64,000 bases of DNA from Candidatus Woesearchaeota archaeon (GTDB lineage: Archaea > Nanobdellota > Nanobdellia > Woesearchaeales > UBA583). A program made the position numbers and the translations under genes. A model generated the notes under the pieces. That model did no database searches. It saw nothing but the letters and a program-made list of their open reading frames with translations, and had not been told where the DNA came from. Location: NCBI GenBank assembly GCA_965205335.1, contig OZ242164.1, positions 128,001-192,000 of the forward strand, in the 5' to 3' direction. Shown in pieces: positions 22,823 through 55,405 of this stretch; the first letter of the stretch is position 1, and each line of letters starts with the position of its first letter.

Positions 22823-22982
22823 ACACATAAATCTGATTCTTCTCTCCCAAAATTCTTTTTAAGTTCTTTACCGTTTGCGAGTACAAAAATAAAGTAGTTT
22901 CTATTGTTTTTCTTTGAATATTGCAGAAAATCTTCAAAAATTAGCGAAAATTATTTAAATACAGATGAATTATTTTATAATT

Positions 22983-38467: not shown

Positions 38468-38791
38468 TTAACTTAGTTTTGAATTTTCAAAGTCTTCTTT
38501 TTTAATTAAAACATATTTTTCCACATTCTGTAATAATTCATTTGACCTTGAAAAATTAGTATTTCTGTCTCTATTAAAATAAGTGTAAAGAATTGTTTTA
38601 ACTCCCTTTTTGTAAGCATTGTTTATCGCAGGAATAAAATCAGTATCACATGCAATTAGAATTACATTTTTTATATTTGGATATTTAGCAGAAGTCTCAA
38701 TTAAATCAATAGTTAGCAAAGTATCAACTCCTTTTTGAGAAAACTTGTACCTATTACCCTCTTTTACTCTTTGACACCTTCCTTCTCTTAT
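38468..38791 (-). pseudogene. 3' half of a class-1 NYN gene (chimera of the 17426 and 9477 copies)
   Basis: Body matches 17428-17737; tail and flank match 9449-9490. Confidence 0.85.
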
Positions 38792-39895
38792 GTTATCATC
38801 AAGTCTTTATTTTTCATAAATTTAACTAAAAATTTTGATTTCTTTATTTATAAAAGTTTAATCCATTCTATAAGTTATTAGAAAATTAAGTATTTAAGAA
38901 TAATTCCTTTGCATCTAAATATTAAAAGTAGAAATTCAAATTCCTATTGTCTTACTATCATTGAGTAGAGAAAACTATATAAATAATAATCTCTTATTAT
39001 TTTAAGTATTAAAGAGAGTTTTCACAATAAAACTCTTAAATGTTAAAAGGCATGCATTTAGTTATTTAAGAATCATATAAACTTTATATGATGGTGCAAG
39101 TTTCTTTTTAATTAACAATGGAAACAACAATTAATTTAGAAGAGAGAATAGGAAACCATATATATAATGGAGATTTTATGGGAGGAATAGAAAGTCCTTC
39201 AAAGAGGAATTTTTTAAAGAAACTTGGGGTTGGTTTAGTTAGTTTAGTAGGTTATGCAACATTATGTAGTTCAGAGGCAAATGCGCAGGGCTTACCACCG
39301 GGGATAGCAAACTGCCGTGATAGAGCAATAAGAATATTATATAGAGATCAAGTTGGAGAAGACAGAGGAAGGAGCAGCTATGGAAGCATTAATAATAGGC
39401 TGAATGGTGTAATTGGTGGATTCTTTGACAGTGTATTAGTAGAGGATAAGTCAAAAAGGATTGAGCCGGCATTGTACTTGTTAAGAGAACAAATTAATCA
39501 CAAATACCGTAGTGGGCTTGGTATTACTGTTAGATTGCCGGAGGTTAGGGATGTGCCTCAGATGTTAAATTTTGATAGAGGAATTAAAAATTTTTATATT
39601 TCTTATATTTATCAGTGGGCAGGTCGTTATATCCCGCATGAAAAAAGCATAGGGAGTGAACAGACAAAAAGAGCGACTGAGAGTAATTTTGTCCATTCAA
39701 TAGCATACGCTGCATATTCTGATACTGAAACAGCAGAACAAAAAGCAAAAGAATATTTAGAGTCAGATATGGAAGGAAAAACAAGAGTAGTTATGGACAT
39801 AAAAAAACAATTTGAGGAAATGAGTAATGGAGACAAAGAATCAAGAGACCCAAGAGACCCGTACAACAGAAAACTCGCAGCATCCTGGAGTAGTT
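38782..39895 (+). repeat. Left arm of a ~1.11-kb inverted repeat
   Basis: Reverse complement of 54293-55405 (one 1-nt indel seen). Confidence 0.92.
38952..39117 (+). promoter_or_regulatory. 166-bp conserved cassette leader, copy 1
   Basis: BRE-TATA agaaaactatataaata, several hairpins and a T-tract; six copies in the window. Confidence 0.85.
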
Positions 39896-40035
39896 TTCGG
39901 CTTGAAAGAAGTATTTTTTTTGAACAGAATGGAACAGATAGTGATAGAAATTTATCAATAAATAGACACATAGAAATCCCTCTGAGAGAAGCAGTAGGGT
40001 TCAGAATCAGAGGACCTCCTCACTATAAACTCTAA
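39118..40035 (+). CDS. Putative secreted protein, family B1 (Tat-like signal)
   Basis: SKRNFLKK + hydrophobic stretch + ANA cleavage-like site. Confidence 0.8.
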   Translation: METTINLEERIGNHIYNGDFMGGIESPSKRNFLKKLGVGLVSLVGYATLCSSEANAQGLPPGIANCRDRAIRILYRDQVGEDRGRSSYGSINNRLNGVIGGFFDSVLVEDKSKRIEPALYLLREQINHKYRSGLGITVRLPEVRDVPQMLNFDRGIKNFYISYIYQWAGRYIPHEKSIGSEQTKRATESNFVHSIAYAAYSDTETAEQKAKEYLESDMEGKTRVVMDIKKQFEEMSNGDKESRDPRDPYNRKLAASWSSFRLERSIFFEQNGTDSDRNLSINRHIEIPLREAVGFRIRGPPHYKL

Positions 40036-40322
40036 TCTGCTTCTCCTTTCTCTTCTGTTCTCTGATGACCCTCATCATTTTGTTGTCTTCTGCAATTGTC
40101 TGATGATGTTAAGTAAAATTCTACTAAACCACTCTTACTAAAATTTAATATTTTTTCTGGCTGCTTTTGTCCTTCTACTTCTACTATTCTTTTAGATTCT
40201 AATGTGTATCTTAATGTTAATTTTGGTGGTTCTCTTGTTCCTGTAAAATGTTGTCCTACTTTTTCTGAGAAACTTCCACTTGTATTTAACTCCCTGAATC
40301 TTCCAATTAAGCCATCTGACAA
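40032..40322 (-). CDS. Convergent partner fragment, type A1, variable C-tail
   Basis: Constant to SSDNCRRQQ in three copies, then a unique tail; lacks a clear start. Confidence 0.55.
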   Translation of the reverse strand: MSDGLIGRFRELNTSGSFSEKVGQHFTGTREPPKLTLRYTLESKRIVEVEGQKQPEKILNFSKSGLVEFYLTSSDNCRRQQNDEGHQRTEEKGEAD

Positions 40323-40380
40323 ATTTATTTCTTTTGAGTCAAAATTTTTTAATCCAAGAGATAAATCTTCTATACCACCA

Positions 40381-40546
40381 TTACTATCATTGAGTAGAGA
40401 AAACTATATAAATAATAATCTCTTATTATTTTAAGTATTAAAGAGAGTTTTCACAATAAAACTCTTAAATGTTAAAAGGCATGCATTTAGTTATTTAAGA
40501 ATTATATAAACTTTATATGATGGTGCAAGTTTCTTTTTAATTAACA
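40381..40546 (+). promoter_or_regulatory. 166-bp cassette leader, copy 2
   Basis: Near-identical to 38952-39117. Confidence 0.85.
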
Positions 40547-41440
40547 ATGGAAACAGCAATTAATTTAGAAGAGCGAATAGGAAACCATATAGATAATAGG
40601 AATATAATGGGAGAGATAGAAAATCCTTCAAGAAGGAATTTTTTAAAAGGACTTGGGATTGGTTTAGCGGGTTATGCAATATTTGGTGGTTTAGAGGCAA
40701 ATGCACAAGGCAGATATGATAACATGGAATTATTAAGACAACATTTACCTCCCGGGATATTAAACTGCCGTGACAGAGCAATTAGAATACTATACGCTCA
40801 GGAAGTCTCTGGCCTCTGGGATGACTTTGGTAGGCTTTATTATAGAATGAAAAGTGAATTTAATGGGTACTACGACAGTGTAATAGTAGAACCTTGGTCA
40901 AGAAAGATTGAACCTGCAATGTATTTACTAAGAGAGCAAATTAATTACAAACGTGGAGGAATTTTTGCAGATTGGCGAAAGGTTACAGATGTGCCACAGA
41001 TGTTAGCTTTTGATGAGGGGATAAGATATTTTTATATTGCTTATGTTTATGGTAATGGTAATGAACAGACAAAAAGAACTACTGAAGATAAATTTGTCCA
41101 TTCAATAGCATACGCTGCATATTCTGATACTGAAACAGCAGAACAAAAAGCAAAAGAATATTTAGAGTCAGATATGGAAGGAAAAACAAGAGTAGTTATG
41201 GACATAAAAAAACAATTTGAGGAAATGAGTAATGGAGACAAAGAATCAAGAGACCCAAGAGACCCGTACAACAGAAAATTAATGGCATCTTGGAGTAGTC
41301 TTATGCTTGAACAGAGTTATTTTTTTGAACAGAATAGAACAGATAGTGAGAGGAATCTTTCAATAAACAGACATATAGAGATTCCCCTTAGAGAAGCAGT
41401 AGGGTTCAGAATCAGAGGACCTCCTCATTATAGATATTAA
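40547..41440 (+). CDS. Putative secreted protein, family B1 (Tat signal)
   Basis: SRRNFLKG...EANA; shares a block with 39118. Confidence 0.8.
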   Translation: METAINLEERIGNHIDNRNIMGEIENPSRRNFLKGLGIGLAGYAIFGGLEANAQGRYDNMELLRQHLPPGILNCRDRAIRILYAQEVSGLWDDFGRLYYRMKSEFNGYYDSVIVEPWSRKIEPAMYLLREQINYKRGGIFADWRKVTDVPQMLAFDEGIRYFYIAYVYGNGNEQTKRTTEDKFVHSIAYAAYSDTETAEQKAKEYLESDMEGKTRVVMDIKKQFEEMSNGDKESRDPRDPYNRKLMASWSSLMLEQSYFFEQNRTDSERNLSINRHIEIPLREAVGFRIRGPPHYRY

Positions 41441-41447
41441 TTTAATT

Positions 41448-41735
41448 TTATCCTGCACCAACTCCTTCACTTGTCAGATTATTCCCACTGCTTTGTTGTC
41501 TTCTGCAATTGTCTGATGATGTTAAGTAAAATTCTACTGAACCACTCTTACTAAAATTTAATATTTTTTCTGGCTGCTTTTGTCCTTCTACTTCTACTAT
41601 TCTTTTAGATTCTAATGTGTATCTTAATGTTAATTTTGGTGGTTCTCTTGTTCCTGTAAAATGTTGTCCTACTTTTTCTGAGAAACTTCCACTTGTATTT
41701 AACTCCCTGAATCTTCCAATTAAGCCATCTGACAA
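41448..41735 (-). CDS. Convergent partner fragment, type A1
   Basis: Same constant part; tail QQSSGNNLTSEGVGAG. Confidence 0.55.
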   Translation of the reverse strand: MSDGLIGRFRELNTSGSFSEKVGQHFTGTREPPKLTLRYTLESKRIVEVEGQKQPEKILNFSKSGSVEFYLTSSDNCRRQQSSGNNLTSEGVGAG

Positions 41736-41793
41736 ATTTATTTCTTTTGAGTCAAAATTTTTTAATCCAAGAGATAAATCTTCTATACTACCA

Positions 41794-41959
41794 TTACTAT
41801 CATTGAGTAGAGAAAATTATATAAATAACAATCTCTTATTATTTTAAGTATTAAAGAGAGTTTTCACAATAAAACTCTTAAATGTTAAAAGGCATGCATT
41901 TAGTTATTTAAGAATTATATAAACTTTATATGATGGTGCAAGTTTCTTTTTAATTAACA
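41794..41959 (+). promoter_or_regulatory. 166-bp cassette leader, copy 3
   Basis: Near-identical repeat. Confidence 0.85.
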
Positions 41960-42883
41960 ATGGAAACAACAATTAAATTAGAAAAGCGAATAGGAAACCA
42001 TATATATAATGGAAATTTTATGGAAGAGATAGAAAGTCCTTCAAAGAGGAGATTTTTAAAAGGATTATTAGGTGCGGGGGTTGTTGCAGTTACTCCAAAA
42101 TTAGCATTTGCACAAAGAAAGAAAAGAATCTCAGATGAAGCAAGAAATAGAATATGGGCAAACTACCCAGAAATGCAGGGTGCAATTGATTTGATAAACG
42201 ATGATGTTTTTGAGGGATTAATTGATTATGCAATGTATCCAAGTCAGGGATATTCTGACCCAAGAGGTATTCCCACATCAATAAGAAAAATACCAAGAGA
42301 AGACATTGGCACACCACACTATTGGCTTCTTTTAAAAATTTACGAAGATAATTACAATTATTATGCTGATGAAGGTGGAAATCCAGGAATGGGCGTTCCG
42401 CCTCCCCCCTCCCCACCATCAGGTGTGTGGTATTTTGCAAGAGGTTTGAGAGACAATAGTCCTGACAATGAAAGTGATTTACTTAAAGCATTGTACATAG
42501 GAGCAACAGGCAGTCCACAAGGAGCAGAACCAATAATCAATGGCACATTCATGAATGTACCCAGAGTTAGAGAAAAAGTAAGAGAATGGCGAGAGAGAAA
42601 TCAACTATCTTCAGATTTGGATGAAGAAGAACACTTATTGTTAGCTTATAACTTAAATGTATTAAGGGCAGTTAGATTTAGGGACGAGGAACTTGTTGAG
42701 TTAAGTCTTTTGGCATTAGAGGATTTTTATGATGGAGTTCGTGCTCCTTCAAAGAGTGACATTTATGGAGCGGAGATTATTGCAGATTTAACGAGAAGAG
42801 ACAAATTGCCAAGATATTCCATAATTGAGAGGACTGGTTCAAGTTTTGTTGTAACATCTCCCTTGCCAGTGCTGAGATTTTAA
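41960..42883 (+). CDS. Putative secreted protein, family B2 (Tat signal)
   Basis: SKRRFLKGLLGAGVVAVTPKLAFA. Confidence 0.8.
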   Translation: METTIKLEKRIGNHIYNGNFMEEIESPSKRRFLKGLLGAGVVAVTPKLAFAQRKKRISDEARNRIWANYPEMQGAIDLINDDVFEGLIDYAMYPSQGYSDPRGIPTSIRKIPREDIGTPHYWLLLKIYEDNYNYYADEGGNPGMGVPPPPSPPSGVWYFARGLRDNSPDNESDLLKALYIGATGSPQGAEPIINGTFMNVPRVREKVREWRERNQLSSDLDEEEHLLLAYNLNVLRAVRFRDEELVELSLLALEDFYDGVRAPSKSDIYGAEIIADLTRRDKLPRYSIIERTGSSFVVTSPLPVLRF

Positions 42884-43380
42884 CCTTTTTCTTTCACGCT
42901 TCTTGTATCTTGTACTTCACCACCACTTGTGATTCTGTTATTTGTTCTGGGATCACATTGTCTTATTCTGAATGTTCTTGATATTGTTACCGGTTCTTTA
43001 TTTTTTTTAGAATTTTTATTCTTTTGATGATATGTTAAGTACAGTGTAACTTCTTCTTCAGGTGTTCCCGTAGGAAGTTTATATCCTGACAAGTTTAATT
43101 CTCCTCTATAAAGATTATCTTTATATTCTAGTTCTCTTTCGGAATCTACTTCTACTTCCTTATCATCTCTTTTTACAGTTTTTTTATATTTGAATTTTTT
43201 AAACTTGTTCTTATCACTGTCTCTTCTCTGCTGTGCAAATGAAACTCTATAATCAAAATGTTTTCCATCATTATTTGTAATAGCAACAATTTCTTGTGTA
43301 TTATAATCAAAACCCTTCAAATTACTTACCGCTGAGATTATTACTGGTATGATTAAATCCTGTTCCTCCTCTTTATTTCT
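42880..43380 (-). CDS. Convergent partner fragment, type A2, variable C-tail
   Basis: DYRVSFAQQRRD...LSGYKLPTGTPEEEVTL...FRIRQC + unique tail; 5' end approximate. Confidence 0.55.
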   Translation of the reverse strand, partial: RNKEEEQDLIIPVIISAVSNLKGFDYNTQEIVAITNNDGKHFDYRVSFAQQRRDSDKNKFKKFKYKKTVKRDDKEVEVDSERELEYKDNLYRGELNLSGYKLPTGTPEEEVTLYLTYHQKNKNSKKNKEPVTISRTFRIRQCDPRTNNRITSGGEVQDTRSVKEKG

Positions 43381-43428
43381 TTTGAGTCAAAATTTTTTAA
43401 TCCAAGAGATAAATCTTCTATACTACTA

Positions 43429-43594
43429 TTACTATCATTGAGTAGAGATAACTATATAAATAACAATCTCTTATTATTTTAAGTATTAAAGAGAGTTTTC
43501 ACAATAAAACTCTTAAATGTTAAAAGGCACGCATTTAGTTATTTAAGAATTATATAAACTTTATATGATGGTGCAAGTTTCTTTTTAATTAACA
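43429..43594 (+). promoter_or_regulatory. 166-bp cassette leader, copy 4
   Basis: Near-identical repeat. Confidence 0.85.
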
Positions 43595-44533
43595 ATGGAA
43601 ACAGCAATTAATTTAGAAGAGCGAATAGGAAACCATATAGATAATGGAAATATTATGGAAGAGATAGAAAGTCCTTCAAAGAGGAGATTTTTAAAAGGAT
43701 TATTAGGTGCAGGAGTTATTGCAGTTACTCCAAAATTAGCATTTGCACAAAGAAGGAAGAAAATCTCAGATGAGGCAAGAGATAGGATTTGGAAAAACTA
43801 TCCAGAAATGCGAGATGTAATTAATATGATAAATGCAGGTAAAGGCAGAAATCACCTTGATTATGCACTGTTCCCCAATCAAGAAATATCTAATCTAAGA
43901 AATCTTCCTATAATGACCGACAAGATTCCAAAAGACGACATGGGGACACCGCAATACTGGCTTCTTGTAAGAATTGACAATCCAGGAACACGAAGTTATA
44001 ATCTGCTATTTGATGGCAGGCATGATCACCTTGGTGTTCCTCCACTTTCACCTCATACGGGAGTGTGGTATTTTGCAAGAAGTTTGAAAAGCAGAAGTTC
44101 TACTAACGAAAGTGATTTGCTTAAAGCCTTGTACATAGGAGCAACAGGCAGTCCACAAGGAGCAGAACCAATAATAAATGGTACATTTATGAATGTATCT
44201 GGAGTTAGAGAAAAAGTTAGGGAATGGAGAGAAGAATATGACTTTGCCCCACATTCAGATGAAGGAAATCATCTGTTAGCATATAATCTAAACATTCTCA
44301 GGGAAGCCATTTTCCCCAACACAGAACATTTTAAAGGCAGAGAACTTGTAGAATTAAGTCTTTTGGCACTGGAGGATTTTTATGATGAGGTTTATTCACC
44401 TGAAAAGAGTAATATCTATGGAGGAAGAATAGTTGGGGATTTAACGAAGAAGGATAAGTTGCCTGGATATTTTATGATTGATGAAGCAGGAGCAGAATCT
44501 CCTTTACCTGTGTTAAGATTTCATAGTAGGTAG
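43595..44533 (+). CDS. Putative secreted protein, family B2 (Tat signal)
   Basis: SKRRFLKG...LAFA; ESDLLKALYIGATGSPQGAEPIINGTFMN core. Confidence 0.8.
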   Translation: METAINLEERIGNHIDNGNIMEEIESPSKRRFLKGLLGAGVIAVTPKLAFAQRRKKISDEARDRIWKNYPEMRDVINMINAGKGRNHLDYALFPNQEISNLRNLPIMTDKIPKDDMGTPQYWLLVRIDNPGTRSYNLLFDGRHDHLGVPPLSPHTGVWYFARSLKSRSSTNESDLLKALYIGATGSPQGAEPIINGTFMNVSGVREKVREWREEYDFAPHSDEGNHLLAYNLNILREAIFPNTEHFKGRELVELSLLALEDFYDEVYSPEKSNIYGGRIVGDLTKKDKLPGYFMIDEAGAESPLPVLRFHSR

Positions 44534-44589
44534 CGAGAAAGAGAAATTAAAATTCCATTTATCGGTCTCTGATTGATTATTTCATCTTA

Positions 44590-45276
44590 TTAACTAACCC
44601 CTCCATCTTCTGGAGTTTTTGTTTTTTCTTTCCGTTGAACTCCACCACTTGTGATTCTGTCAATTGTTCTGGGATCACATTGTCTTATTCTGAATGTTCT
44701 TGATATAGTTACTGGTTCTTTATTTTTTTTAGGGTCTTTACTCTTTTGATGATATGTTATATACAGAGTAACTTCTTCTTCAGGAGTTCCTGTTGGAAGT
44801 TTATATCCTGACAAGTTTAATTCTCCTCTATAAAGATTATCTTTATATTCTAGTTCTACTTTTACTTTCTTTTCTCTGCCATTACTATCCTTAATTACAT
44901 TGCCATTATCATCCTTAAGTACAAGATCGAATTTTTTTTCTAACTTGTTCTTCTCATTATCTCTTCTCTGCTGTGCAAATGAAACTCTGTAATCAAAATT
45001 TTTGTTATCATCTCTTTCAATATTCATGATACTCTCATCATCATACTTGAACTTCTCCCAATTACTTACCGCAGAGATTATTACTGGTACAATTAAATCC
45101 TGTTCCTCCTCTTTGTTTCTGACACACAAGCTTTGCTTTTCAAATGGTCTTACTATATCAAATATGAAATTCATATCATCATCTTCTTCATTTTTAACGT
45201 TTGAAGCAACAGTAAATCTGAGTTCAAGTAAATCATTGACATCCACATTTCTTGACACATCTATGTCTTCACCCAT
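44590..45276 (-). CDS. Convergent partner, type A2 (longest copy; frame open upstream to ~45385)
   Basis: 228+ aa; same constant motifs as the copies at 42880 and 52471. Confidence 0.6.
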   Translation of the reverse strand: MGEDIDVSRNVDVNDLLELRFTVASNVKNEEDDDMNFIFDIVRPFEKQSLCVRNKEEEQDLIVPVIISAVSNWEKFKYDDESIMNIERDDNKNFDYRVSFAQQRRDNEKNKLEKKFDLVLKDDNGNVIKDSNGREKKVKVELEYKDNLYRGELNLSGYKLPTGTPEEEVTLYITYHQKSKDPKKNKEPVTISRTFRIRQCDPRTIDRITSGGVQRKEKTKTPEDGGVS

Positions 45277-45444
45277 TATACTATATTTTCTGAAATTATC
45301 TCTTGTTATACTTCCTGCATTGCTTGGTAAAAGTCTTAATAATAATCTACATTTTAATTCAGTAGTTTTATTTGTATTAAGACTTTTTCATAACATATAT
45401 AATTTAATAATAAACCCCCCTTTAAGTTGACAACTCATATAAAC

Positions 45445-46474
45445 GGCTCTGTCCATAAATTAATTTTTTTAAAATAAAAGAGATGAAAATACAATTTGAT
45501 ACTAAAACATTATCATTTTTCTTTTGAAAATTATCCAATTTTCATAGAAGAAAATTACATAAGAAAGTTTTTTTCTAATGTTATACCAAAGAATATTCCA
45601 TGCCATCTCCCTTTTTTTCATAAAATGTATCCTACTTCTGATATTTAGGCCTTGAACTCTCTTGAGTGATGAAAACACACTCTCGACATTGTTCCTTTTA
45701 TTGTATATTTCTTTGTTTTTGAAGTATTTTTGTTTGATTTTCCAATGCTTAAAAGCATTATGCTTGGTTTTTGCATAGTCTTTTGGCGGGAAAATCAAAT
45801 CTATATCTTTATCATTTAGAAAATCTAAATGATCAAAGGAAAAATATCCTTTGTCTGCCACAATAACACTCTTCTTTATTTTGAGTCTTTTGAAAAGTTT
45901 GTTTGCAACTTTTGAATCATGCTGATTCTTAACCAAGAAAGAATAATCAATTATTTGTTTAGAGCCTTGTACGTCACAAATTATATCTAATTTGTGCCAA
46001 GGTGATTTGGGTTCAAATCCAATCCGATGTTTGTAATAAGTAGTTTTATGGTCTGCATCAATTCCCGAACCATCAATTGCTACAAGGTCTGGATTAGGAT
46101 TTTCTAAAGAAAGTCTAATTAGGTTGCGGATAAAACTAACTGAGAAGAACTTTAACCACTTATGAAGTGTTGATTTCTTTGGAAGGCGTTTTAACTGCAA
46201 CCAATGCTTCCATGCGGTTAATGTGCCGTCTAGATTGCTTACAAACCTTCTAAAGGATTTTCCTGATTGGATGTATAAGACTATTATAGAAACTCTTTGA
46301 TAATTGTTAAAGAGTTTGCAACCCCTCACAAAATTGTGAGGCCTTAACCTTAAACTATGACAAAGTTTAAGTACTTCCTTATGTAAACTATTAGTAAAGT
46401 TGGTGTGTTCTAACATAAAAAACTATCAACTTTACACTTTATTAATTCTTCGATTTGAATTTATGGACAGTGCC
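45445..46474 (-). mobile_element. IS5-family insertion sequence, intact (1030 bp)
   Basis: 17-bp TIR GGC(T/A)CTGTCCATAAATT flanking a single transposase. Confidence 0.93.
45502..46416 (-). CDS. DDE transposase (IS5 family)
   Basis: AIDGSG, VADKGY, YNKRNNVESVFSSLKR. Confidence 0.93.
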   Translation of the reverse strand: MLEHTNFTNSLHKEVLKLCHSLRLRPHNFVRGCKLFNNYQRVSIIVLYIQSGKSFRRFVSNLDGTLTAWKHWLQLKRLPKKSTLHKWLKFFSVSFIRNLIRLSLENPNPDLVAIDGSGIDADHKTTYYKHRIGFEPKSPWHKLDIICDVQGSKQIIDYSFLVKNQHDSKVANKLFKRLKIKKSVIVADKGYFSFDHLDFLNDKDIDLIFPPKDYAKTKHNAFKHWKIKQKYFKNKEIYNKRNNVESVFSSLKRVQGLNIRSRIHFMKKREMAWNILWYNIRKKLSYVIFFYENWIIFKRKMIMF

Positions 46475-46522
46475 TACACTTGAATAAATTTATAAATAAA
46501 GAGAAATAAAAATACTTTAACT

Positions 46523-48730
46523 ATGAAGATAAATAAGAGGATACGATTATGTATTATTTTAGTGTCGTTGTTTTTCTTATTAGGAATTACTGGATGTGTG
46601 CAAGAACCAGTAATAGTAGAAGAGAATGGCAATACAACATCCAATATAATCGATACAGATTTTGAATATGAATTGTTTAATCAATCTCTGGAAATAAAAA
46701 ATTTCACATCAGAAACCCAACTTAGCGAATATTTAAAGAAGAATTCACAATCAGGTAGTTTCTATTATTCAGATGATTTTGCAACTTTTGGTACTTTTGA
46801 AGGAGATGTAGTCTTTGAAGCTTCTGCTCAAGCAGATTCTTCTGTCAGTGCAAAATCAATAGAGAGTGTTAGAGCAGATGATTACTCCCAGACAAATATA
46901 CAGGTTGAAGGTGTAGATGAGGCTGATTTTGTTAAAAATGATGGAAAATATATTTATATGATATTGCAGGGAAAATTAGTAATTGTAGATGCTTATCCTC
47001 CAAAAGAAGCGAAAATCATATCAAAAACAGAAATTAAAGGAAATCCTCAAAATTTATATATTAATAAAGATAGAGTTATAGTATTTGCATCAGATTATAA
47101 AAAAGTGCAAAAAATCTCAAGATATGATTTCATTCCAAAAGAAACCTCAGAAAGGCATACAATTGCATACATCTATAATGTTTCAGACAGGAAAAATCCA
47201 AAACTCTTAAAGGAATATTCTGCAACAGGAAATTATTTAGAGTCTCGGATGATTGAAGATTATATTTATTTTATATCAAAAGAATCTATCTATTACTATG
47301 ATGATGTAATCACTTTCCCTGAGGTGAGATTAGATGGGAACTTAATTAGCACCCCAGAAGTTTTTTATTTTGATATTCCAGAAAGCAGATATATATTTCA
47401 CACTTTTACAACTTTTAATATATATGAAGATAAAAAATCTAATGCAAAGACATTTATGCTTGGAGCATCAAACAATGTATATGTATCCCAAGATAATATT
47501 TATATAACTCATAAGAAAACATATCCAAGTTTGTTCTATAAGCAATTAGAAATTGATAAATTCTTCAAGGCAGTTGTCCCATTACTCCCTACCCAAGTTG
47601 CAGATAATATCTCAGAAATTAGAAGGGGGTTAGAGGATAACTCAATAGAATCTTATAATGCAATATGGAATGAAATATCTGTTGTTCTTGAAGATATGTA
47701 TAATTCTATGGAGAAGGATGAAAAATATGAATTAATTGATAAAATTGAAGAATCTTTAATTGAGTATGAAACCGAGATTGAAGATAAGATTTCATCATCT
47801 GTTGTTCATAAAATCTCAATTAATGAAGACGAGATTGAATATTTAACAAACGGAGAGGTCAAGGGAACACTTTTAAATCAGTTTTCAATGGATGAAAAAG
47901 ATGGAAATTTAAGGGTTGCAACAACAACTAACTCTTTTTCACGTCAAAGAGGCAGAGTTATGTATAATAATGTATATGTGTTAGATGAAGATTTAGAAAT
48001 TATCGGAAAAATTGAAAAGATTGCACCTGATGAGAGAATTTATTCAACAAGATTTATGGGAGATAAACTTTATATGGTAACATTTAAACAAATAGACCCG
48101 TTATTTACAATTGATTTGTCTAACCCAGAAGAACCTAAAATAATAGGACAGTTAAAAATTCCCGGATTTTCAAATTATCTTCACCCGTATGATGAGAATC
48201 ATTTAATAGGGATTGGACAGGATACATACGTGAATGATCGTGGGGGGGTTAGAACAAAAGGAGTTAAGATTTCATTATTTGATGTTTCAGATTTTGAGAA
48301 TCCAAGAGAGGTTGATAATGTTATTATCGGAGATGAGGGTTCTTATTCGGAGGTTTTAAATGATCATAAAGCACTTTTGTTTAGCCGTGAAAAGAATTTA
48401 CTTGTACTGCCAATTAGAGAAGTATCTGATAACTATAAAACAGATAGAGGCGGGTATTTTAGAAACAGAGTTTGGAATGGGGCTTATGTGTTTACAGTTA
48501 CGCCTGACGGGTTTAGCGAGCGGGGAAAGATAAAACATTCAGATAAAGAATATGATACATATTATTGGAGTTCACCAAGTTCAGTAAGAAGAGCATTATA
48601 CTTAGATGATAATTTATACACGATTTCAGATGAGTATATTAAAATTAATGATTTAAACACTATTGATGAGATAGGAGATATAAAACTGCCTTATAATGAT
48701 AGATGGTATTATGATTATTGGTATAAATAA
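46523..48730 (+). CDS. Secreted beta-propeller domain protein, probable lipoprotein
   Basis: LLGITGC lipobox-like motif; YSQTNIQVEGVDEADFVKNDG; LLNQFSMDE; VTFKQIDPLF; LKIPGFSNYLHP. Confidence 0.92.
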   Translation: MKINKRIRLCIILVSLFFLLGITGCVQEPVIVEENGNTTSNIIDTDFEYELFNQSLEIKNFTSETQLSEYLKKNSQSGSFYYSDDFATFGTFEGDVVFEASAQADSSVSAKSIESVRADDYSQTNIQVEGVDEADFVKNDGKYIYMILQGKLVIVDAYPPKEAKIISKTEIKGNPQNLYINKDRVIVFASDYKKVQKISRYDFIPKETSERHTIAYIYNVSDRKNPKLLKEYSATGNYLESRMIEDYIYFISKESIYYYDDVITFPEVRLDGNLISTPEVFYFDIPESRYIFHTFTTFNIYEDKKSNAKTFMLGASNNVYVSQDNIYITHKKTYPSLFYKQLEIDKFFKAVVPLLPTQVADNISEIRRGLEDNSIESYNAIWNEISVVLEDMYNSMEKDEKYELIDKIEESLIEYETEIEDKISSSVVHKISINEDEIEYLTNGEVKGTLLNQFSMDEKDGNLRVATTTNSFSRQRGRVMYNNVYVLDEDLEIIGKIEKIAPDERIYSTRFMGDKLYMVTFKQIDPLFTIDLSNPEEPKIIGQLKIPGFSNYLHPYDENHLIGIGQDTYVNDRGGVRTKGVKISLFDVSDFENPREVDNVIIGDEGSYSEVLNDHKALLFSREKNLLVLPIREVSDNYKTDRGGYFRNRVWNGAYVFTVTPDGFSERGKIKHSDKEYDTYYWSSPSSVRRALYLDDNLYTISDEYIKINDLNTIDEIGDIKLPYNDRWYYDYWYK

Positions 48731-48814
48731 ATGTAGATTATAAACTCAGATATGCTTAAAAAATTATACTTTATTTGTATATGTTTATAACTTGAATTTA
48801 TAATTTGCAGTTAC

Positions 48815-48942
48815 GGCTCTGTCCATAAATTCAAAAGAACTTAAAATATTATATAAATAAAGTAATTTTTGACAAATAATCTTTTTCTTTGATTGAATAT
48901 AGTTAGCATAGATTTTGGAGAAAACAATTTATGGACAGAGCC
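48815..48942. mobile_element. Family-1 MITE (right end of composite 2)
   Basis: Perfect TIR GGCTCTGTCCATAAATT, 128 bp. Confidence 0.92.
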
Positions 48943-49308
48943 ATATAAACGATAATTTTATAAATATATTATATAATTAATTGTTTAAACAATTTGCTTA
49001 ATAGCCATATATGGAGAATATGACTATTAGTTTGCTTGGGTTAGGTAACGAATATTAAAATATTCGTATTTGGCTTATTACGCTTATTCTAATATTTGAA
49101 ATAAAACACACGTTGCCTATCCTACTTACTTTAAACGTTTAGATTTTAAATAGTTATCGCTTAATTTTCCAAAGATCTTTAGTGTTCTTTTACTCCTTTT
49201 CAGAAAAGAGAAAAATTTATGAATGAACACCCTTTTTAATTTTTATGGAAGGAATTAATAAATATTTAAAAAACGCTTCTAAGAGTGGAAGGGGGGAGGG
49301 AGGACAAT

Positions 49309-49773
49309 ATGGAAGAAAATATAAAATTTTATTCTGAAATTTACGTTCAAATAATTTATTGCATTAATAAAAAAGGTCTTATAATTAAAGAGAATAAATT
49401 TAATTTTAATAAATTTAAAAAATTAGTCTTAGAATTAAAATCAAAAAATGTGTTTGATTCTATTTTAAATAAGTATAATAAATTTGATGAAAATGAATTA
49501 AAACTAATTCTTATTGGAATTATGAAGATTATTATAAATAGATTTAAAGGAATTGTAGAAGATACTCAAGAAACTTCGCAAAATTATAGTGAAGAATATA
49601 AAGCTGCACTTGCTGATATAAAACATAATTCTTTAAGAGAAATTCAAAAGTTTGAAGAATTAATTTCTAAAAATCAATTTGAAAATATAATATCAGAGAT
49701 AAAGAAAAGCAATATAAGATATGATCCCAAATTTTTTCATTTATTCAGTGAAAGAAATAATAAGAGAACTTAA
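49309..49773 (+). CDS. Hypothetical protein
   Basis: ORF preceded by an SD-like GGAGG. Confidence 0.5.
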   Translation: MEENIKFYSEIYVQIIYCINKKGLIIKENKFNFNKFKKLVLELKSKNVFDSILNKYNKFDENELKLILIGIMKIIINRFKGIVEDTQETSQNYSEEYKAALADIKHNSLREIQKFEELISKNQFENIISEIKKSNIRYDPKFFHLFSERNNKRT

Positions 49774-49821
49774 GAAACTATTGAATCAAACTAAACAAAT
49801 TTTAGAAGAAAACATAATCTA

Positions 49822-49911
49822 CTATTGTAGATATAATACGATATAAATAATAATTATAATTATGCCAATAATAATAAACATACTAATTTGGGATTTCTTT
49901 GCCTTACTCAT
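49822..49911 (-). pseudogene. Class III (pilin-type) signal peptide mini-ORF or remnant
   Basis: MSKAKKSQ-ISMFIIIGIIIIIIYIVLYLQ*. Confidence 0.45.
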
Positions 49912-50107
49912 ATATTCATTACCTAATATTAAATAACACATTTATAATATATGAGGTATGAAAATATTTATAAGTTTATTGAATATGAAAAAAAATTATT
50001 TTTAAATATCAGAATGTGCATATAATATTATGGAAAAAGAACGCAAATGGATGAGTGTTAGTTGGAGGTTTGATAAAAACGGAAATACAATTGGTAAAAA
50101 ACCAGTG

Positions 50108-50170
50108 TGTAGTGCCATGACATATGTCACCAGTCTAAAGATTAACAATTCTTGTTAACTTTCTTAAAAA
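50108..50170. mobile_element. Family-2 MITE end
   Basis: TGTAGTGCCATGACATATGTCACCAGTCTAAA matches the 12995-13050 end in reverse. Confidence 0.65.
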
Positions 50171-50390
50171 ACTTTGAGACAGCCTATCTCCAATAAAAAG
50201 AATAAGAGGGAAAGTATCTGATATTGAAGGGGAAATAGAGTTCAAATAGAGATTAAATCTTCAAGTTAAATATGATATTCATATTTTCTGTTACTTCTTC
50301 GTTTAACTCGTGTAAACCTTCTAACTTCTCTGTTATTTCTTCTTCCGACTTCTTGACCTTAGTTTTCTTCATATTTGTTGATTGACAAAG

Positions 50391-50615
50391 TTATTTATAT
50401 ATATTTTTTCTTAAGCCCAAATATTTGACATAAAGTTCCTTTTCCTCAAAATTAATACTAATTAATGTCCTATGATTTCCAATTTTAAGTTTATAATATT
50501 TATCTCCTTCGTAATGTTCTAAATAATGAAAAGGGTTACTTTCAAGTTTTTTTAACTTAACTTTTGTATCTATTATTAAATAGATTTTAAAAAAGATTTT
50601 CTTGATGAATTTCAA
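50391..50615 (-). CDS. RelE/ParE-like toxin (possibly degenerate)
   Basis: LESNPF...YYKLKIGNHR...LGLRKNIY. Confidence 0.65.
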   Translation of the reverse strand: MKFIKKIFFKIYLIIDTKVKLKKLESNPFHYLEHYEGDKYYKLKIGNHRTLISINFEEKELYVKYLGLRKNIYK

Positions 50616-50638
50616 AAGTAAAAACCAAATGGTAAAAT

Positions 50639-51961
50639 TTACAGAGATTTACCGTTATTAACAATTGAATTAAATTTATCGCTCCTAATGAAAATACTTC
50701 TATTTCCTGCTGATTTCTCAATCAAAAACCCTAAATTTACCAGTTTTTGCAAATCACTTCTAGCAGTTTGTTTTGTAATTACAAATCTCTGTGAGATTTC
50801 TAAAACTGAAAAAATTCTATTCTTATCACTTTCATAAAAACCTAAGATTTGAGCTTGTCTCTCTGTCAAATCCCCATATTTTAAGAACTTCATTGAACTT
50901 CTCTTCTCTTTTAACTTTCTTTCAATATATGCTCTTAAATCATTAAAAGCTAATTCAATTTTATCAACTTTATAATTAATAAAATATGTTAAGTCATTAT
51001 CATCAATTTCTGAATATACGTAAGCTTTAGAATATTGAGAATGACTCTTTATAATAATTCTTGATATACTAATATATTCAAATAGCCAGTAATTATTTGA
51101 GATAAGGTAAAGAAAAAAAATACATCTTGCACATCTTCCGTTTCCATCATAAAATGGATGTATATATCCAAGTAAGAAATGTAATATATTTGCTTTTATA
51201 ATTGGATGTATAAAGAATTTCTGTTCATTATTATAAAAATCACAAAAATCATCTATTAATCTTCCTAATTCTTTCTTACTTGGAGGAATATGATAAACTT
51301 CTCCTGTAATTCTGTCTGCAACTTTGATTTCATCTGTGTTTCTGAATTTTCCTTCGTAATCTACCTTCTCTAACGTTTTGGATGTAATTATCTGATGGAG
51401 TTCCAATAAAATCTCTTTTGTTAGTTTTTCCCCTTTTAAGTCTAAAATTCTTTTCATTGCAAGAAAATTGTTTAAAATCATCTTTTGACTTTTATCTTTA
51501 GGTTTTTTTCTGTTTAGAATCATATCCTTTGCAACTTTTATTGTTGTGCTTGCACCCTCTAACCTTGATGAATTAATTGATTCCTCAATAATTGAATTTA
51601 TTAAAAATCTATCTATTTCATCACTGGGGATTATTCCATTAACTGTTAAACTACCCCCTAAATTTAAGTCAAAATTGTGCAACTTCTCTAAAGTACTACT
51701 TGTTAAGTTAAAACAAAATCTGTACTTTCCAATCTTAATTGATTTTAAATTCTTCATTCTTTCAAGTTTCATCATATGCCAAATATCCTCTCTTGATATA
51801 CCTCTAGGAATATTCTTGTAGTATAATTTCTCCCAATAAATATATTTCTCATTGTATTCTTTGACTAATTCTCTAAATTTTGAATTTGATATGTATGCTT
51901 TAAAAATTCTAGATAAATACTCAGAATCAGCCTTCTTAGGAGGTATTTTTGGAAATCTCAT
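50639..51961 (-). CDS. Fic-domain protein with C-terminal HTH
   Basis: HPFYDGNGRCAR; SSRLEG inhibitory-type motif; TARSDLQKL HTH. Confidence 0.92.
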   Translation of the reverse strand: MRFPKIPPKKADSEYLSRIFKAYISNSKFRELVKEYNEKYIYWEKLYYKNIPRGISREDIWHMMKLERMKNLKSIKIGKYRFCFNLTSSTLEKLHNFDLNLGGSLTVNGIIPSDEIDRFLINSIIEESINSSRLEGASTTIKVAKDMILNRKKPKDKSQKMILNNFLAMKRILDLKGEKLTKEILLELHQIITSKTLEKVDYEGKFRNTDEIKVADRITGEVYHIPPSKKELGRLIDDFCDFYNNEQKFFIHPIIKANILHFLLGYIHPFYDGNGRCARCIFFLYLISNNYWLFEYISISRIIIKSHSQYSKAYVYSEIDDNDLTYFINYKVDKIELAFNDLRAYIERKLKEKRSSMKFLKYGDLTERQAQILGFYESDKNRIFSVLEISQRFVITKQTARSDLQKLVNLGFLIEKSAGNRSIFIRSDKFNSIVNNGKSL

Positions 51962-52054
51962 TCTAATATTAGAATTACTTACTTATTTATAAAATTTGTG
52001 TAAATGGTAAAATTTACAGAAATTTACCATTATTGACAACAGCATTTACATAAA

Positions 52055-52683
52055 GTGAAGAAGAGGTTAAATGAAAGAGGAGATGATGTTTACTGGACAT
52101 GGAATAGTGATGACATTCATTTAGCATTTGATTTAGTTAGACCGTTTGAAAAGCAAAGTGTTTGTGTCAGAAATAAAGAAGAGGAACAAGATCTAAATGT
52201 ATCAGTAATAATCTCTGCGGTAAGTAATTTGAAGGATTTTAAGTATATAATGTAAATATTAAAAACAATGATGTAGATGATGATATAGAAAAAGTTCCTA
52301 ATTATTTTGATTATAGAGTTTCATTTGCACAGCAGAGAAGAGATAGTGATAAGAACAAGTTTAAAAAATTCAAATATAAAAAAACTGTAAAAAGAGGTGA
52401 TAAGGAAGTAGAAGTAGATTCCGAAAGAGAACTAAATTATACAGATAATCTTTATAGTGGAATTTTAAACTTGTCAGGATATAAACTTCCAACAGGAACT
52501 CCTGAAGAGGAAGTTACACTGCATATAACTTATCATAAAAAAGATAAAGAACCAGTAACAATATCAAGAACATTCAGAATAAGACAATGTAATCCTGGAA
52601 TAATTGACAGAACCTCTACAGATGACGGTGATGATCCTAGTATTAAGGGAAGCTCTGGGGGAGATATTCCTAGTCAAGAATAA
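52055..52683 (+). pseudogene. Convergent partner type A2, frameshifted and fused to a NYN fragment
   Basis: KRLNERG..DDIHLAFDLVR (NYN-like) joined to PFEKQSVCVRNKEEEQDL; C-terminal FRIRQC + unique tail. Confidence 0.65.
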
Positions 52684-52690
52684 TTATGAG

Positions 52691-53632
52691 TTAAAATCTT
52701 AATCTTGGTAAAGGATCTCTTACAACATAAATTGAACCATCTCTTTCAATTATAGAATATTCTGGCAACTTTCCTTTTTCTGTTAGGTCTTCAATTACCC
52801 ATGCCCGATAAAGACTTCTCCTTTCAGGAGAATTAGTTCTATCATAAAAATCCGCCAATGTTAAAAGACTTAGTTCTACAAGTTCTTTATCTCTAAAATC
52901 CACGTTCCTGAGAATATTCACATTATATGCTAATAGGTGATTTCCTTCGTCTGAAAATGGAGCAAAGTCATATTTTTCTTTCCATTCTCTTACTTTTTCT
53001 CTAACTCCAGATGCATTCATAAATGTACCATTTATTATTGGTTCTGCTCCTTGTGGACTGCCTGTTGCTCCTACATATAATGATTTAAGTAAATCACTTT
53101 CATTGTCAGGACTATTGTCTCTCAAACCTCTTGCAAAATACCACACACCTGAAGGGGGAGAGGGGGGAGGCGGAACGTCTAACCCTGGATCTCCGTCCTC
53201 ATCGGCAAAGAAATTATAATCATCATCTGCATGAATTTTTAAAAGAAGCCAATAGTGTGGTGTGTCCATATCTTCGCTTGATATTTTATCTATTGATGTA
53301 GGAATACCTCTTGGACTATAATATCCCTGATCTGGATACATTGCATAATCAATTAATACATCATCAACGGATTCATCATTCACATAATTATCATTTATCA
53401 AGTCAATTGCTCCTTGCATTTCTGGGTAGTTTGCCCAAATCCTATTTCTTGCTTCATCTGAGATTTTCTTCCTTCTTTGTGCAAATGCTAATTTTGGAGT
53501 AACTGCAATAACTCCTGCACCTAATAATCCTTTTAAAAATCTCCTCTTTGAAGGACTTTCTATCTCTTCCATAAAATTTCCATTATATATATGGTTTCCT
53601 ATTCGCTTTTCTAATTTAATTGCTGTTTCCAT
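52691..53632 (-). CDS. Putative secreted protein, family B2 (Tat signal)
   Basis: Mosaic of blocks shared with 41960 and 43595. Confidence 0.8.
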   Translation of the reverse strand: METAIKLEKRIGNHIYNGNFMEEIESPSKRRFLKGLLGAGVIAVTPKLAFAQRRKKISDEARNRIWANYPEMQGAIDLINDNYVNDESVDDVLIDYAMYPDQGYYSPRGIPTSIDKISSEDMDTPHYWLLLKIHADDDYNFFADEDGDPGLDVPPPPSPPSGVWYFARGLRDNSPDNESDLLKSLYVGATGSPQGAEPIINGTFMNASGVREKVREWKEKYDFAPFSDEGNHLLAYNVNILRNVDFRDKELVELSLLTLADFYDRTNSPERRSLYRAWVIEDLTEKGKLPEYSIIERDGSIYVVRDPLPRLRF

Positions 53633-53798
53633 TGTTAATTAAAAAGAAACTTGCACCATCATATAAAGTTTATATAATTCTTAAATAACTAAATGCATGC
53701 CTTTTAACATTTAAGAGTTTTATTGTGAAAACTCTCTTTAATACTTAAAATAATAAGAGATTGTTATTTATATAATTTTCTCTACTCAATGATAGTAA
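53633..53798 (-). promoter_or_regulatory. 166-bp cassette leader, copy 5
   Basis: Reverse complement of the leader repeat. Confidence 0.85.
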
Positions 53799-53856
53799 TG
53801 GTGGTATAGAAGATTTATCTCTTGGATTAAAAAATTTTGACTCAAAAGAAATAAAT

Positions 53857-54147
53857 TTGTCAGATGGCTTAATTGGAAGATTCAGGGAGTTAAATACAAG
53901 TGGAAGTTTCTCAGAAAAAGTAGGACAACATTTTACAGGAACAAGAGAACCACCAAAATTAACATTAAGATACACATTAGAATCTAAAAGAATAGTAGAA
54001 GTAGAAGGACAAAAGCAGCCAGAAAAAATATTAAATTTTAGTAAGAGTGGTTTAGTAGAATTTTACTTAACATCATCAGACAATTGCAGAAGACAACAAC
54101 AAGGAGATGTAGGGGGAGTAGGTGATGCCGATGAAGGGGAAATTTAA
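53857..54147 (+). CDS. Convergent partner fragment, type A1
   Basis: Same constant part; tail QQQGDVGGVGDADEGEI. Confidence 0.55.
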   Translation: MSDGLIGRFRELNTSGSFSEKVGQHFTGTREPPKLTLRYTLESKRIVEVEGQKQPEKILNFSKSGLVEFYLTSSDNCRRQQQGDVGGVGDADEGEI

Positions 54148-54149
54148 TG

Positions 54150-55070
54150 TTAATATTTATAATTATAGTGGGGGGGTCCTCTAATCTTAAATCCTACATC
54201 TTCTCTTAATGGTGCTTCTATATTTCTATTTATAAGTAAGCCTATTTCCATTTGATTACCCCTACTAGGGCGATAATTTACTACAAGCCAATAACTACTC
54301 CAGGATGCTGCGAGTTTTCTGTTGTACGGGTCTCTTGGGTCTCTTGATTCTTTGTCTCCATTACTCATTTCCTCAAATTGTTTTTTTATGTCCATAACTA
54401 CTCTTGTTTTTCCTTCCATATCTGACTCTAAATATTCTTTTGCTTTTTGTTCTGCTGTTTCAGTATCAGAATATGCAGCGTATGCTATTGAATGGACAAA
54501 ATTACTCTCAGTCGCTCTTTTTGTCTGTTCACTCCCTATGCTTTTTTCATGCGGGATATAACGACCTGCCCACTGATAAATATAAGAAATATAAAAATTT
54601 TTAATTCCTCTATCAAAATTTAACATCTGAGGCACATCCCTAACCTCCGGCAATCTAACAGTAATACCAAGCCCACTACGGTATTTGTGATTAATTTGTT
54701 CTCTTAACAAGTACAATGCCGGCTCAATCCTTTTTGACTTATCCTCTACTAATACACTGTCAAAGAATCCACCAATTACACCATTCAGCCTATTATTAAT
54801 GCTTCCATAGCTGCTCCTTCCTCTGTCTTCTCCAACTTGATCTCTATATAATATTCTTATTGCTCTATCACGGCAGTTTGCTATCCCCGGTGGTAAGCCC
54901 TGCGCATTTGCCTCTGAACTACATAATGTTGCATAACCTACTAAACTAACTAAACCAACCCCAAGTTTCTTTAAAAAATTCCTCTTTGAAGGACTTTCTA
55001 TTCCTCCCATAAAATCTCCATTATATATATGGTTTCCTATTCTCTCTTCTAAATTAATTGTTGTTTCCAT
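54150..55070 (-). CDS. Putative secreted protein, family B1
   Basis: Identical to 39118 up to AASWSS, then a different C-terminus. Confidence 0.8.
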   Translation of the reverse strand: METTINLEERIGNHIYNGDFMGGIESPSKRNFLKKLGVGLVSLVGYATLCSSEANAQGLPPGIANCRDRAIRILYRDQVGEDRGRSSYGSINNRLNGVIGGFFDSVLVEDKSKRIEPALYLLREQINHKYRSGLGITVRLPEVRDVPQMLNFDRGIKNFYISYIYQWAGRYIPHEKSIGSEQTKRATESNFVHSIAYAAYSDTETAEQKAKEYLESDMEGKTRVVMDIKKQFEEMSNGDKESRDPRDPYNRKLAASWSSYWLVVNYRPSRGNQMEIGLLINRNIEAPLREDVGFKIRGPPHYNYKY

Positions 55071-55405
55071 TGTTAATTAAAAAGAAACTTGCACCATCAT
55101 ATAAAGTTTATATGATTCTTAAATAACTAAATGCATGCCTTTTAACATTTAAGAGTTTTATTGTGAAAACTCTCTTTAATACTTAAAATAATAAGAGATT
55201 ATTATTTATATAGTTTTCTCTACTCAATGATAGTAAGACAATAGGAATTTGAATTTCTACTTTTAATATTTAGATGCAAAGGAATTATTCTTAAATACTT
55301 AATTTCTAATAACTTATAGAATGGATTAAACTTTTATAAATAAAGAAATCAAAATTTTTAGTTAAATTTATGAAAAATAAAGACTTGATGATAACATAAG
55401 AGAAG
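54293..55405 (-). repeat. Right arm of the ~1.11-kb inverted repeat
   Basis: Reverse complement of 38782-39895. Confidence 0.92.
55071..55236 (-). promoter_or_regulatory. 166-bp cassette leader, copy 6
   Basis: Reverse complement of the leader repeat. Confidence 0.85.

Follow-up and report, generated by a model that had tools for sequence, protein, structure and literature searches.

Convergent pairs of giant-gene remnants and small exported-protein genes in a Woesearchaeota archaeon: a probable outcome of segmental duplication and halted gene conversion

The window considered here is a stretch of 64,000 nucleotides (nt) from the genome of a Candidatus Woesearchaeota archaeon (contig OZ242164.1, positions 128,001 to 192,000), a genome that consists of a single contig of 1.2 Mb with a GC content of ~28%. 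Between positions 39118 and 55070 the window carries an array of six convergent pairs, in each of which a gene for a small, predicted exported protein (type B1 or B2) runs tail to tail into an open reading frame (ORF) of type A1 or A2 that is constant up to a sharp boundary and different from copy to copy thereafter. We consider it probable, at about 0.68, that the array descends from a duplicated ancestral pair, shaped by concerted evolution that halts at unalignable sequence and by the decay of truncated A ends. The ancestral pair would have comprised a giant, Sec-exported surface protein of ~1700-1840 amino acids (aa) and a convergent, exported, alpha-helical B protein of ~300 aa, and would have been partially duplicated in segments, with four units in tandem and two inverted. 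Each unit would hold a whole B gene with its promoter and leader region (within a repeat termed D1) together with the last 105-260 codons of the giant gene, the A ORFs being promoterless relics and not genes. Gene conversion among the units, and between them and the full-length locus, would homogenise whatever is similar enough to pair and would halt at segments that have diverged too far. The most diverged of these would be the junction of the convergent 3' ends, where an old B C-terminal module under purifying selection may meet a fast-evolving acidic and glycine-rich tail that follows the last conserved cysteine. Conversion halting at this junction would produce the sharp transition from constant to hypervariable sequence; duplication, the limits of conversion and A decay would together account for the strict pairing, the sharp boundaries, the broken A2 copies and the mismatched tails of B1 copies 1 and 2. 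This reading is built on the duplication structure of the array, the existence of a parent gene, synteny, the mosaicism of the copies and one tract that runs across both 3' ends. By the same reading, the A fragments would be non-functional by-products, and selection would probably act on the expanded B repertoire.

A preliminary description of this DNA had claimed strict tail-to-tail pairing of B1 with A1 and of B2 with A2, and all six pairs were recovered as described in the ORF list of the window. Taken in the pair order of the features below (the three B1/A1 pairs, then the three B2/A2 pairs), the stop-to-stop distances are -4, +7, +2, -4, +56 and +7 nt. Stop codons thus lie within 10 nt of each other in five of the six pairs, with a 4-nt overlap in two, in agreement with the close spacing reported earlier. 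The B genes are:

39118-40035, plus strand: B1 copy 1, intact, 305 aa, predicted to be exported, with the twin-arginine-like signal SKRNFLKKLG and cleavage site ANA-Q
40547-41440, plus strand: B1 copy 2, intact, 297 aa, signal SRRNFLKGLG
54150-55070, minus strand: B1 copy 3, intact, 306 aa, its first 262 codons identical to copy 1 and the remainder deeply diverged
41960-42883, plus strand: B2 copy 1, intact, 307 aa, signal SKRRFLKGLL
43595-44533, plus strand: B2 copy 2, intact, 312 aa, C-terminal third of the same type as in the B2 gene of the full-length locus
52691-53632, minus strand: B2 copy 3, intact, 313 aa

The A ORFs that face them are:

40032-40394, minus strand: A1 copy 1, 5'-truncated, ~105 homologous codons plus tail; TTG-start ORF at 40032-40322
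41448-41735, minus strand: A1 copy 2, truncated 3' end, tail SSGNNLTSEGVGAG
53785-54147, plus strand: A1 copy 3, truncated 3' end, tail QGDVGGVGDADEGEI; ORF at 53857-54147
42880-43392, minus strand: A2 copy 1, covering parent residues ~1668-1826, with one in-frame TGA; ORF at 42880-43320, joint with D1 at ~43380
44590-45369, minus strand: A2 copy 2, the longest fragment, covering parent residues 1586-1838 at 78% identity, frame intact; ORF at 44590-45276
52106-52683, plus strand: A2 copy 3, truncated and frameshifted, with 52106-52249 and 52285-52620 in different frames; tail ORF at 52471-52683

The origin of the A2 ORFs can be read from the genome itself. The 228-aa product of A2 copy 2 matches six places in it, and one of these matches (78% identity) lies at the end of a continuous 1838-aa frame, genome positions 755939-761455, some 583 kb from the array. 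This full-length parent carries an N-terminal signal peptide and lies tail to tail, across 56 nt, with a fourth full-length B2 gene (genome 754974-755882), directly upstream of which stands an rve-type integrase gene; the two constitute a seventh pair, outside the window, at genome 754974-761455. The A2 ORFs are 5'-truncated 3' ends of this giant secreted-protein gene, which bears out the earlier suspicion that the A ORFs are what is left of larger genes. All six A copies in the window are 5'-truncated, and two of the three A2 copies are additionally broken, one by the TGA and the other by the frameshift. The A1 copies, in contrast, keep their frames open. Ratios of nonsynonymous to synonymous divergence (dN/dS) among the A2 copies lie between 0.37 and 0.73, values that fit relaxed constraint. 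A Pfam search of the giant protein and of the A ORFs returned no family match, and no protein among those of 1010-3217 aa matched the giant C-terminus. An AlphaFold2 model of the C-terminal region of A2 contains only beta structure and a disordered tail; at a predicted local distance difference test score (pLDDT) of 51 it is too poor for a fold search.

The same genome search, which the preliminary description had called for, delivered a parent for A2 and none for A1: A1 occurs at the three window sites only, in open frames of 122-123 aa, and a full-length A1 gene was not found in this genome. The sole A1 relative among longer database proteins is P0001 (304 aa, 63% identity), which ends in ...SDNCRRQQ and a different acidic tail. 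A1 also aligns over its whole length with the C-terminal end of the orthologous giant protein in a same-genus genome, G009 (E 9e-6), and has no pairwise similarity to the resident giant C-terminus. A1 is thus what remains of another kind of giant-gene end, the full-length form of which this genome has lost. Elsewhere, a relic of A1-type middle sequence (genome 751797-752159, 53% identical to P0001 residues 52-171) lies 3.8 kb past the 3' end of the giant gene, beyond the B2 gene, the rve integrase gene and two small ORFs, and is consistent with a displaced older gene end.

The array is pervaded by repeats, foremost among them D1, a 300-nt element that stands ahead of every B gene in the window in four direct copies (83-100% identical) and two inverted ones:

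40324-40623, plus strand: D1, consisting of ~70 nt of A1-derived coding sequence, then the B promoter and leader region and the first ~25 B codons
38895-39194, 41737-42036 and 43372-43671: the other direct copies of D1
53532-53798 and 54970-55236: the inverted copies of D1
38782-39904, no strand assigned: left arm of the large inverted repeat, holding the upstream region and first 262 codons of B1 copy 1, 100% identical to 54284-55405

The large inverted arms comprise two 100% matches of 1022 nt and 103 nt, and additional inverted arms of 572-713 nt are 97-98% identical. Upstream of its TTG start, A1 remains homologous to P0001 as far as ~70 nt into D1, and the array can consequently be read as a plain tandem repeat whose unit boundary falls inside the A frame; the start sequence of D1 occurs four times in the genome, always within the array. 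The duplicated unit would measure 1.4-1.7 kb, with one boundary inside the A frame and the other upstream of the B promoter region. Strict pairing would then not be a coincidence, since the copies are duplicates of one another. At window 43372-43392, A2 copy 1 meets the A1-derived start of D1 at short shared bases, which suggests that the B2 units entered the array through microhomology or through a homeologous crossover between A2-type and A1-type sequence.

The pairing itself extends well beyond this genome. Orthologues of the giant protein are present in all 19 same-genus genomes (lengths 1670-1730 aa), and the neighbourhood at the 3' end of the giant gene was read in 16 of them. A convergent, signal-bearing, B-like gene of 265-347 aa comes next in nine of these 16 (G001, G002, G004, G007, G008, G009, G015, G016 and G018), mostly with the motif RR-[DEN]-F-[LI]-K-K and often with adjacent or overlapping stops. 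In three others (G011, G012 and G017) the B-like gene downstream is co-oriented with the giant gene, and the 3' neighbour is unrelated in the remaining four (G005, G013, G014 and G019). The B-like partners of the genus are very divergent and are joined by weak all-against-all similarities; B1 as a query found homologues in four of the 19 genomes, in all four beside the giant gene, and B2 as a query found none in 60 relatives. On this comparative evidence, tail-to-tail pairing would be inherited synteny copied by segmental duplication, and inherited synteny combined with duplication needs no special mechanism to explain strict pairing. That the pairing might simply reflect segmental duplication had been set by the preliminary description against its own reading, and this is what the synteny (9/16) and the duplicates point to. 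Of two further outcomes it had named alongside, neutral evolution of the A ORFs is set against the dN/dS values given above for A2, which fit relaxed constraint, and two broken copies, and the missing parent applies to A1 only.

Junction alignments confirm that A1 and A2 are constant and then differ. A1 is constant to ...SDNCRRQQ, with all but 2 of ~320 aligned columns identical across the three copies, and continues after CRRQQ into three tails of 14-15 aa (~45 nt) that cannot be aligned with one another; A2 is constant to ...FRIRQC and continues into three different tails of 24-30 aa. The tails are acidic and glycine-rich, of low complexity and purine-rich (A+G 59-79%). Alignment of 13 giant-protein C-termini from the genus reveals a common all-beta architecture with a terminal cysteine in 11 of the 13, followed by tails of 0 to ~43 residues in which D, E, G, S and N abound. 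A variable tail after the cysteine is thus found throughout the genus, so that a constant region followed by a variable one would be a property of the family and not of this window. A diversity-generating retroelement was also considered and rejected: the genome has no match to a reverse transcriptase (RVT_1), and the variable segments are mutually unalignable.

In identity profiles the copies are mosaics of identical and deeply diverged sequence, of the type that gene conversion classically leaves. B1 copies 1 and 3 are identical over 1125 nt, fully different over the following 175-184 nt, and 97-100% identical thereafter, the divergence islands being:

39905-40079, no strand assigned: unit 1 island, containing the last ~43 B1 codons and the 15-codon A1 tail; joint 39904 to 40080
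54100-54283, no strand assigned: unit 3 island, 184 nt, with flanks 97-100% identical to units 1 and 2

In the B frame of the islands, the last 60 codons have a proportion of synonymous differences (pS) of 0.42-0.69, with 0.50 for B1 copy 3 against copy 1, and dN/dS values of 0.13-0.46. Synonymous divergence near saturation together with conserved residues argues that the islands are old and constrained and not freshly mutated; the B C-terminal islands are old alleles under purifying selection within recently homogenised flanks. The C-termini of B1 copies 1 and 2 are almost the same (proportion of nonsynonymous differences 0.11, last 60 codons), yet their A1 tails are unrelated, a mismatch that argues against co-variation of cognate A tails and B alleles. 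Exchange with the full-length locus has also left its mark. The full-length locus is 98-100% identical to cassette 2 of the window over ~600 nt (genome 755550-756150), which take in ~330 nt at the 3' end of B2, ~210 nt at the 3' end of the giant gene and the 56 nt that separate the two, whereas at 755150-755400 the parent matches cassette 2 at 62-72% and cassettes 1 and 3 more closely, at 76-90%. A tract with both 3' ends has therefore moved between the window and the full-length locus at least once. Another genome of the genus, G015, has its giant gene in two parts (1460 + 796 aa; L048, G015:C1:48500-57400), and its extra A-like genes of 376 and 546 aa have the common end ...CDAETAFTQKW and then different tails.

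Several observations weigh against duplication and halted conversion as the whole account, and they lend themselves to a reading of the array as an archive of silent cassettes, in which truncated A and B 3' ends donate the C-termini of the surface protein and of B together and so vary the surface of the episymbiont. A single full-length A2 gene does coexist with three truncated copies that have conserved flanks in common, and the only near-identical tract between the parent and any cassette is centred exactly on both 3' ends, as cassette exchange predicts, with parent flanks that are nearer to other cassettes. The A frame is open in every tail, and alternative frames mostly contain stops, so that the tails look like former coding sequence and not random spacer. 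The architecture recurs independently in G004, where a further B gene and a 630-aa A fragment come directly after a complete pair (L035, G004:C6:5000-13700), with flanks that are 100% identical around a junction island of ~280 nt at 44-64%. The B island in G004 has a dN/dS of 3.4, calculated on 51 codons only, which hints at something beyond passive divergence. Members of the wider B2 family, moreover, carry the signal, core and C-terminal third in reshuffled combinations, and 14 pairs combine a core identity of at least 80% with a C-terminal identity of at most 45%. The preliminary description had proposed that one event exchanges both variable 3' ends, and to that extent the tract and the recurrence in G004 support it; the pairing from which the proposal started needs no such event. 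Moreover, the tract fixes neither the direction nor the frequency of exchange, the A1 cassettes have neither an expression site here nor any resemblance to the resident giant C-terminus, and damage is seen in two A2 copies. As complete genes with a promoter region of their own, the B copies need no expression site, contigs over the region show only joints that known paralogues can explain, and what varies in A is a short tail of low complexity for which disorder is predicted. An archive of silent cassettes is for these reasons unlikely, if still a reading to be taken seriously. A bolder form of it, in which tail and B module would be swapped as a matched unit between an island archive and the full-length locus by a new type of convergent, two-gene 3'-end cassette system, with a B export route that possibly involves the host, strikes us as somewhat more doubtful again.

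Other readings fare considerably worse than duplication with halted conversion. The A ORFs might be small functional genes, encoding for example 96-aa proteins from TTG starts that bind or regulate the B product, or else antisense regulators; their frames are open in all three A1 copies, and the tails are coding-like in composition. The near-identity of the A1 copies through recent conversion, however, leaves their open frames with little information, the homology to P0001 passes upstream of the TTG start into D1, the ORFs have neither a signal peptide nor a Pfam match, and their A2 equivalents are visibly broken, all of which makes this reading very improbable. The preliminary description had likened the pairs to polymorphic toxin/immunity or ligand/receptor systems, and a truncated end of a large secreted-protein gene next to a complete small gene, repeated, does resemble an array of orphan modules in which the giant protein would bear a variable effector and B would protect against it. 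The likeness does not survive closer inspection: the variable part amounts to 14-30 aa of low-complexity, acidic and glycine-rich sequence with no toxin or ligand domain and no Pfam match, neither toxin nor immunity families were found in A, B or the giant protein, and B, which is convergent instead of co-directional, has an export signal. Each of the 19 genus genomes, besides, has the giant protein as a single conserved orthologue, and we regard a toxin/immunity system as largely refuted, with only a slight chance left to it. An assembly artefact, with repeats collapsed or chimerically joined in a metagenome-derived genome, would be favoured by the many repeats of 300-1100 nt at 95-100% identity and by the nature of the reads-derived evidence on the region, which consists of short contigs from three runs of one sample, a look for RNA data sets covering the region having returned none. 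Against it stand the single 1.2-Mb contig, the X1 and X2 contigs that cover unit-specific junctions (one joins 39904 to 41493 through 184 other letters, which correspond to unit 3), and the same architecture in G004 as an independent genome, so that an artefact is hardly credible.

Unlike the A ORFs, the B genes are intact in all seven copies, that is, the six in the window and the one at the full-length locus. B1 and B2 have a common leader and are otherwise ~30% identical. Neither has a Pfam match; a search of 1.84 billion representatives gave 62 relatives of B1 at E<=1e-3, and B2 has 34 in a collection of 5.8 billion proteins, five of them from this genome and none of them named. A profile search with a B2 alignment yielded no matches in genome, metagenome or viral contigs. 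The AlphaFold2 model of B2 copy 1 (mean pLDDT 80, mostly 80-98 per 10-residue block in the mature part) is all-alpha with a small C-terminal hairpin. A Foldseek comparison of the B model with the PDB returned nothing at E<=0.001, the best VIA-align Z of 7.6, to APC TPR subunits, is below the noise level quoted for helical models, and the ESM Atlas recognised the signal peptide alone. Complex prediction for the C-terminal 279 aa of the parent with the B2 protein of the full-length locus gave scores of 0.00, 0.41 and 0.00, which weigh neither way.

How the B proteins leave the cell is a question raised by their leaders. All seven have the twin-arginine motif S-[KR]-R-x-F-L-K (RR or KR), a hydrophobic stretch and an AxA site, and they are the only N-terminal matches to the motif among 1427 open frames of at least 100 aa, one further match being internal to another frame, at position 245. 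They share motif, h-region and cleavage site with signal peptides of the twin-arginine translocation (Tat) pathway and differ in that translocase genes were not detected: TatC (PF00902) was found in none of 20 genus genomes, this one included, and TatA (PF02416) was not found in this genome, with controls matched in 11-12 of 14 genomes. The Tat searches thus leave the B export route unexplained. In some relatives of B2 (P0004, P0008, P0013 and others), up to 83% identical to B2 copy 1, a cysteine-rich, Sec-type leader replaces the RR leader. A contig from run X3, at a higher depth of 23.6, matches B2 copy 1 at 95% identity over 284 nt (window 42155-42438) and then enters GC-richer sequence encoding the cysteine-rich leader type, which suggests that the B2 body has recently passed between this archaeon and some other organism in the sample. 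In P0024 (470 aa), domains of an IS1595-type transposase (PF12760, PF12762) occur together with a segment that is 73% identical to part of B2, a hint that B2 fragments may travel with insertion sequences.

The array invites comparison with families in which pseudogene cassettes generate surface variation, such as Neisseria pilE/pilS, Anaplasma msp2, Borrelia vlsE and the MgPa repeats of Mycoplasma genitalium. It resembles them in having one full-length gene and promoterless, 5'-truncated copies (for A2 only), conserved flanks around divergent cores, mosaic identity and at least one tract in common with the full-length locus. It differs in that the cassette spans two convergent 3' ends with B complete and probably expressed in every copy, that the variable part is a short terminal tail, that A1 has no expression site, and that it is known from sequence and not from observed switching; those families, furthermore, belong to bacterial pathogens, and the present array to a DPANN-type archaeon. 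Orphan C-terminal/immunity modules of contact-dependent inhibition (CDI) and Rhs systems are likewise displaced, truncated ends of a very large secreted protein kept with a small neighbour, and the G004 fragment directly beside its full-length gene is a further likeness. Here, in contrast, there is neither a toxin domain nor a demarcation motif, the small gene is convergent and its product exported, and the large protein is a conserved orthologue and not a mobile toxin. Concerted evolution that leaves persistent divergence islands in tandem paralogues occurs generally, the surface-antigen paralogues of Plasmodium (PMC10919680) being one example. The array is alike in that homogenised flanks lie beside old, diverged segments in surface-related paralogues; it differs in that the island straddles a convergent junction and includes a pseudogene tail. 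A literature search, judged by titles and abstracts, found no publication on the pairing of giant gene and B gene.

The locus defines a pair found across the genus, a giant surface protein with a small exported partner, both outside any named family; in at least two species the adjoining 3' ends of the two genes act as a single unit of recombination. DPANN archaea need contact with host cells, a role for which their large surface proteins are the leading candidates; to our knowledge, variation of such proteins is almost undescribed. If the exchange were selected, this would be the first cassette-type surface variation to be described in such archaea, in an unusual convergent, two-gene geometry, and if matched pairs were exchanged, a cell could change its surface pair in one step. 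If it were not selected, the array would provide a clean case in which gene conversion and old allelic islands mimic a designed constant/hypervariable system.

An Rfam search of the window returned no RNA families, and a promoter and terminator scan gave 37 sites against 30.5 +/- 4.6 expected, under a bacterial-type model that is uninformative for an archaeon. To judge from the annotations of the genes around the array, its surroundings look like a flexible island:

45502-46416, minus strand: DDE (IS4-type) transposase, adjoining the truncated 5' end of A2 copy 2
52-1815: OLD-like TOPRIM/AAA protein
4633-6468: RecQ-like helicase
22965-24260: AbiEii-type AAA_21 protein
36821-38314: DUF2779 protein
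38468-38719: NYN ORF, truncated
46523-48730: beta-propeller protein, 735 aa
50639-51961: Fic/DOC protein with an HTH domain

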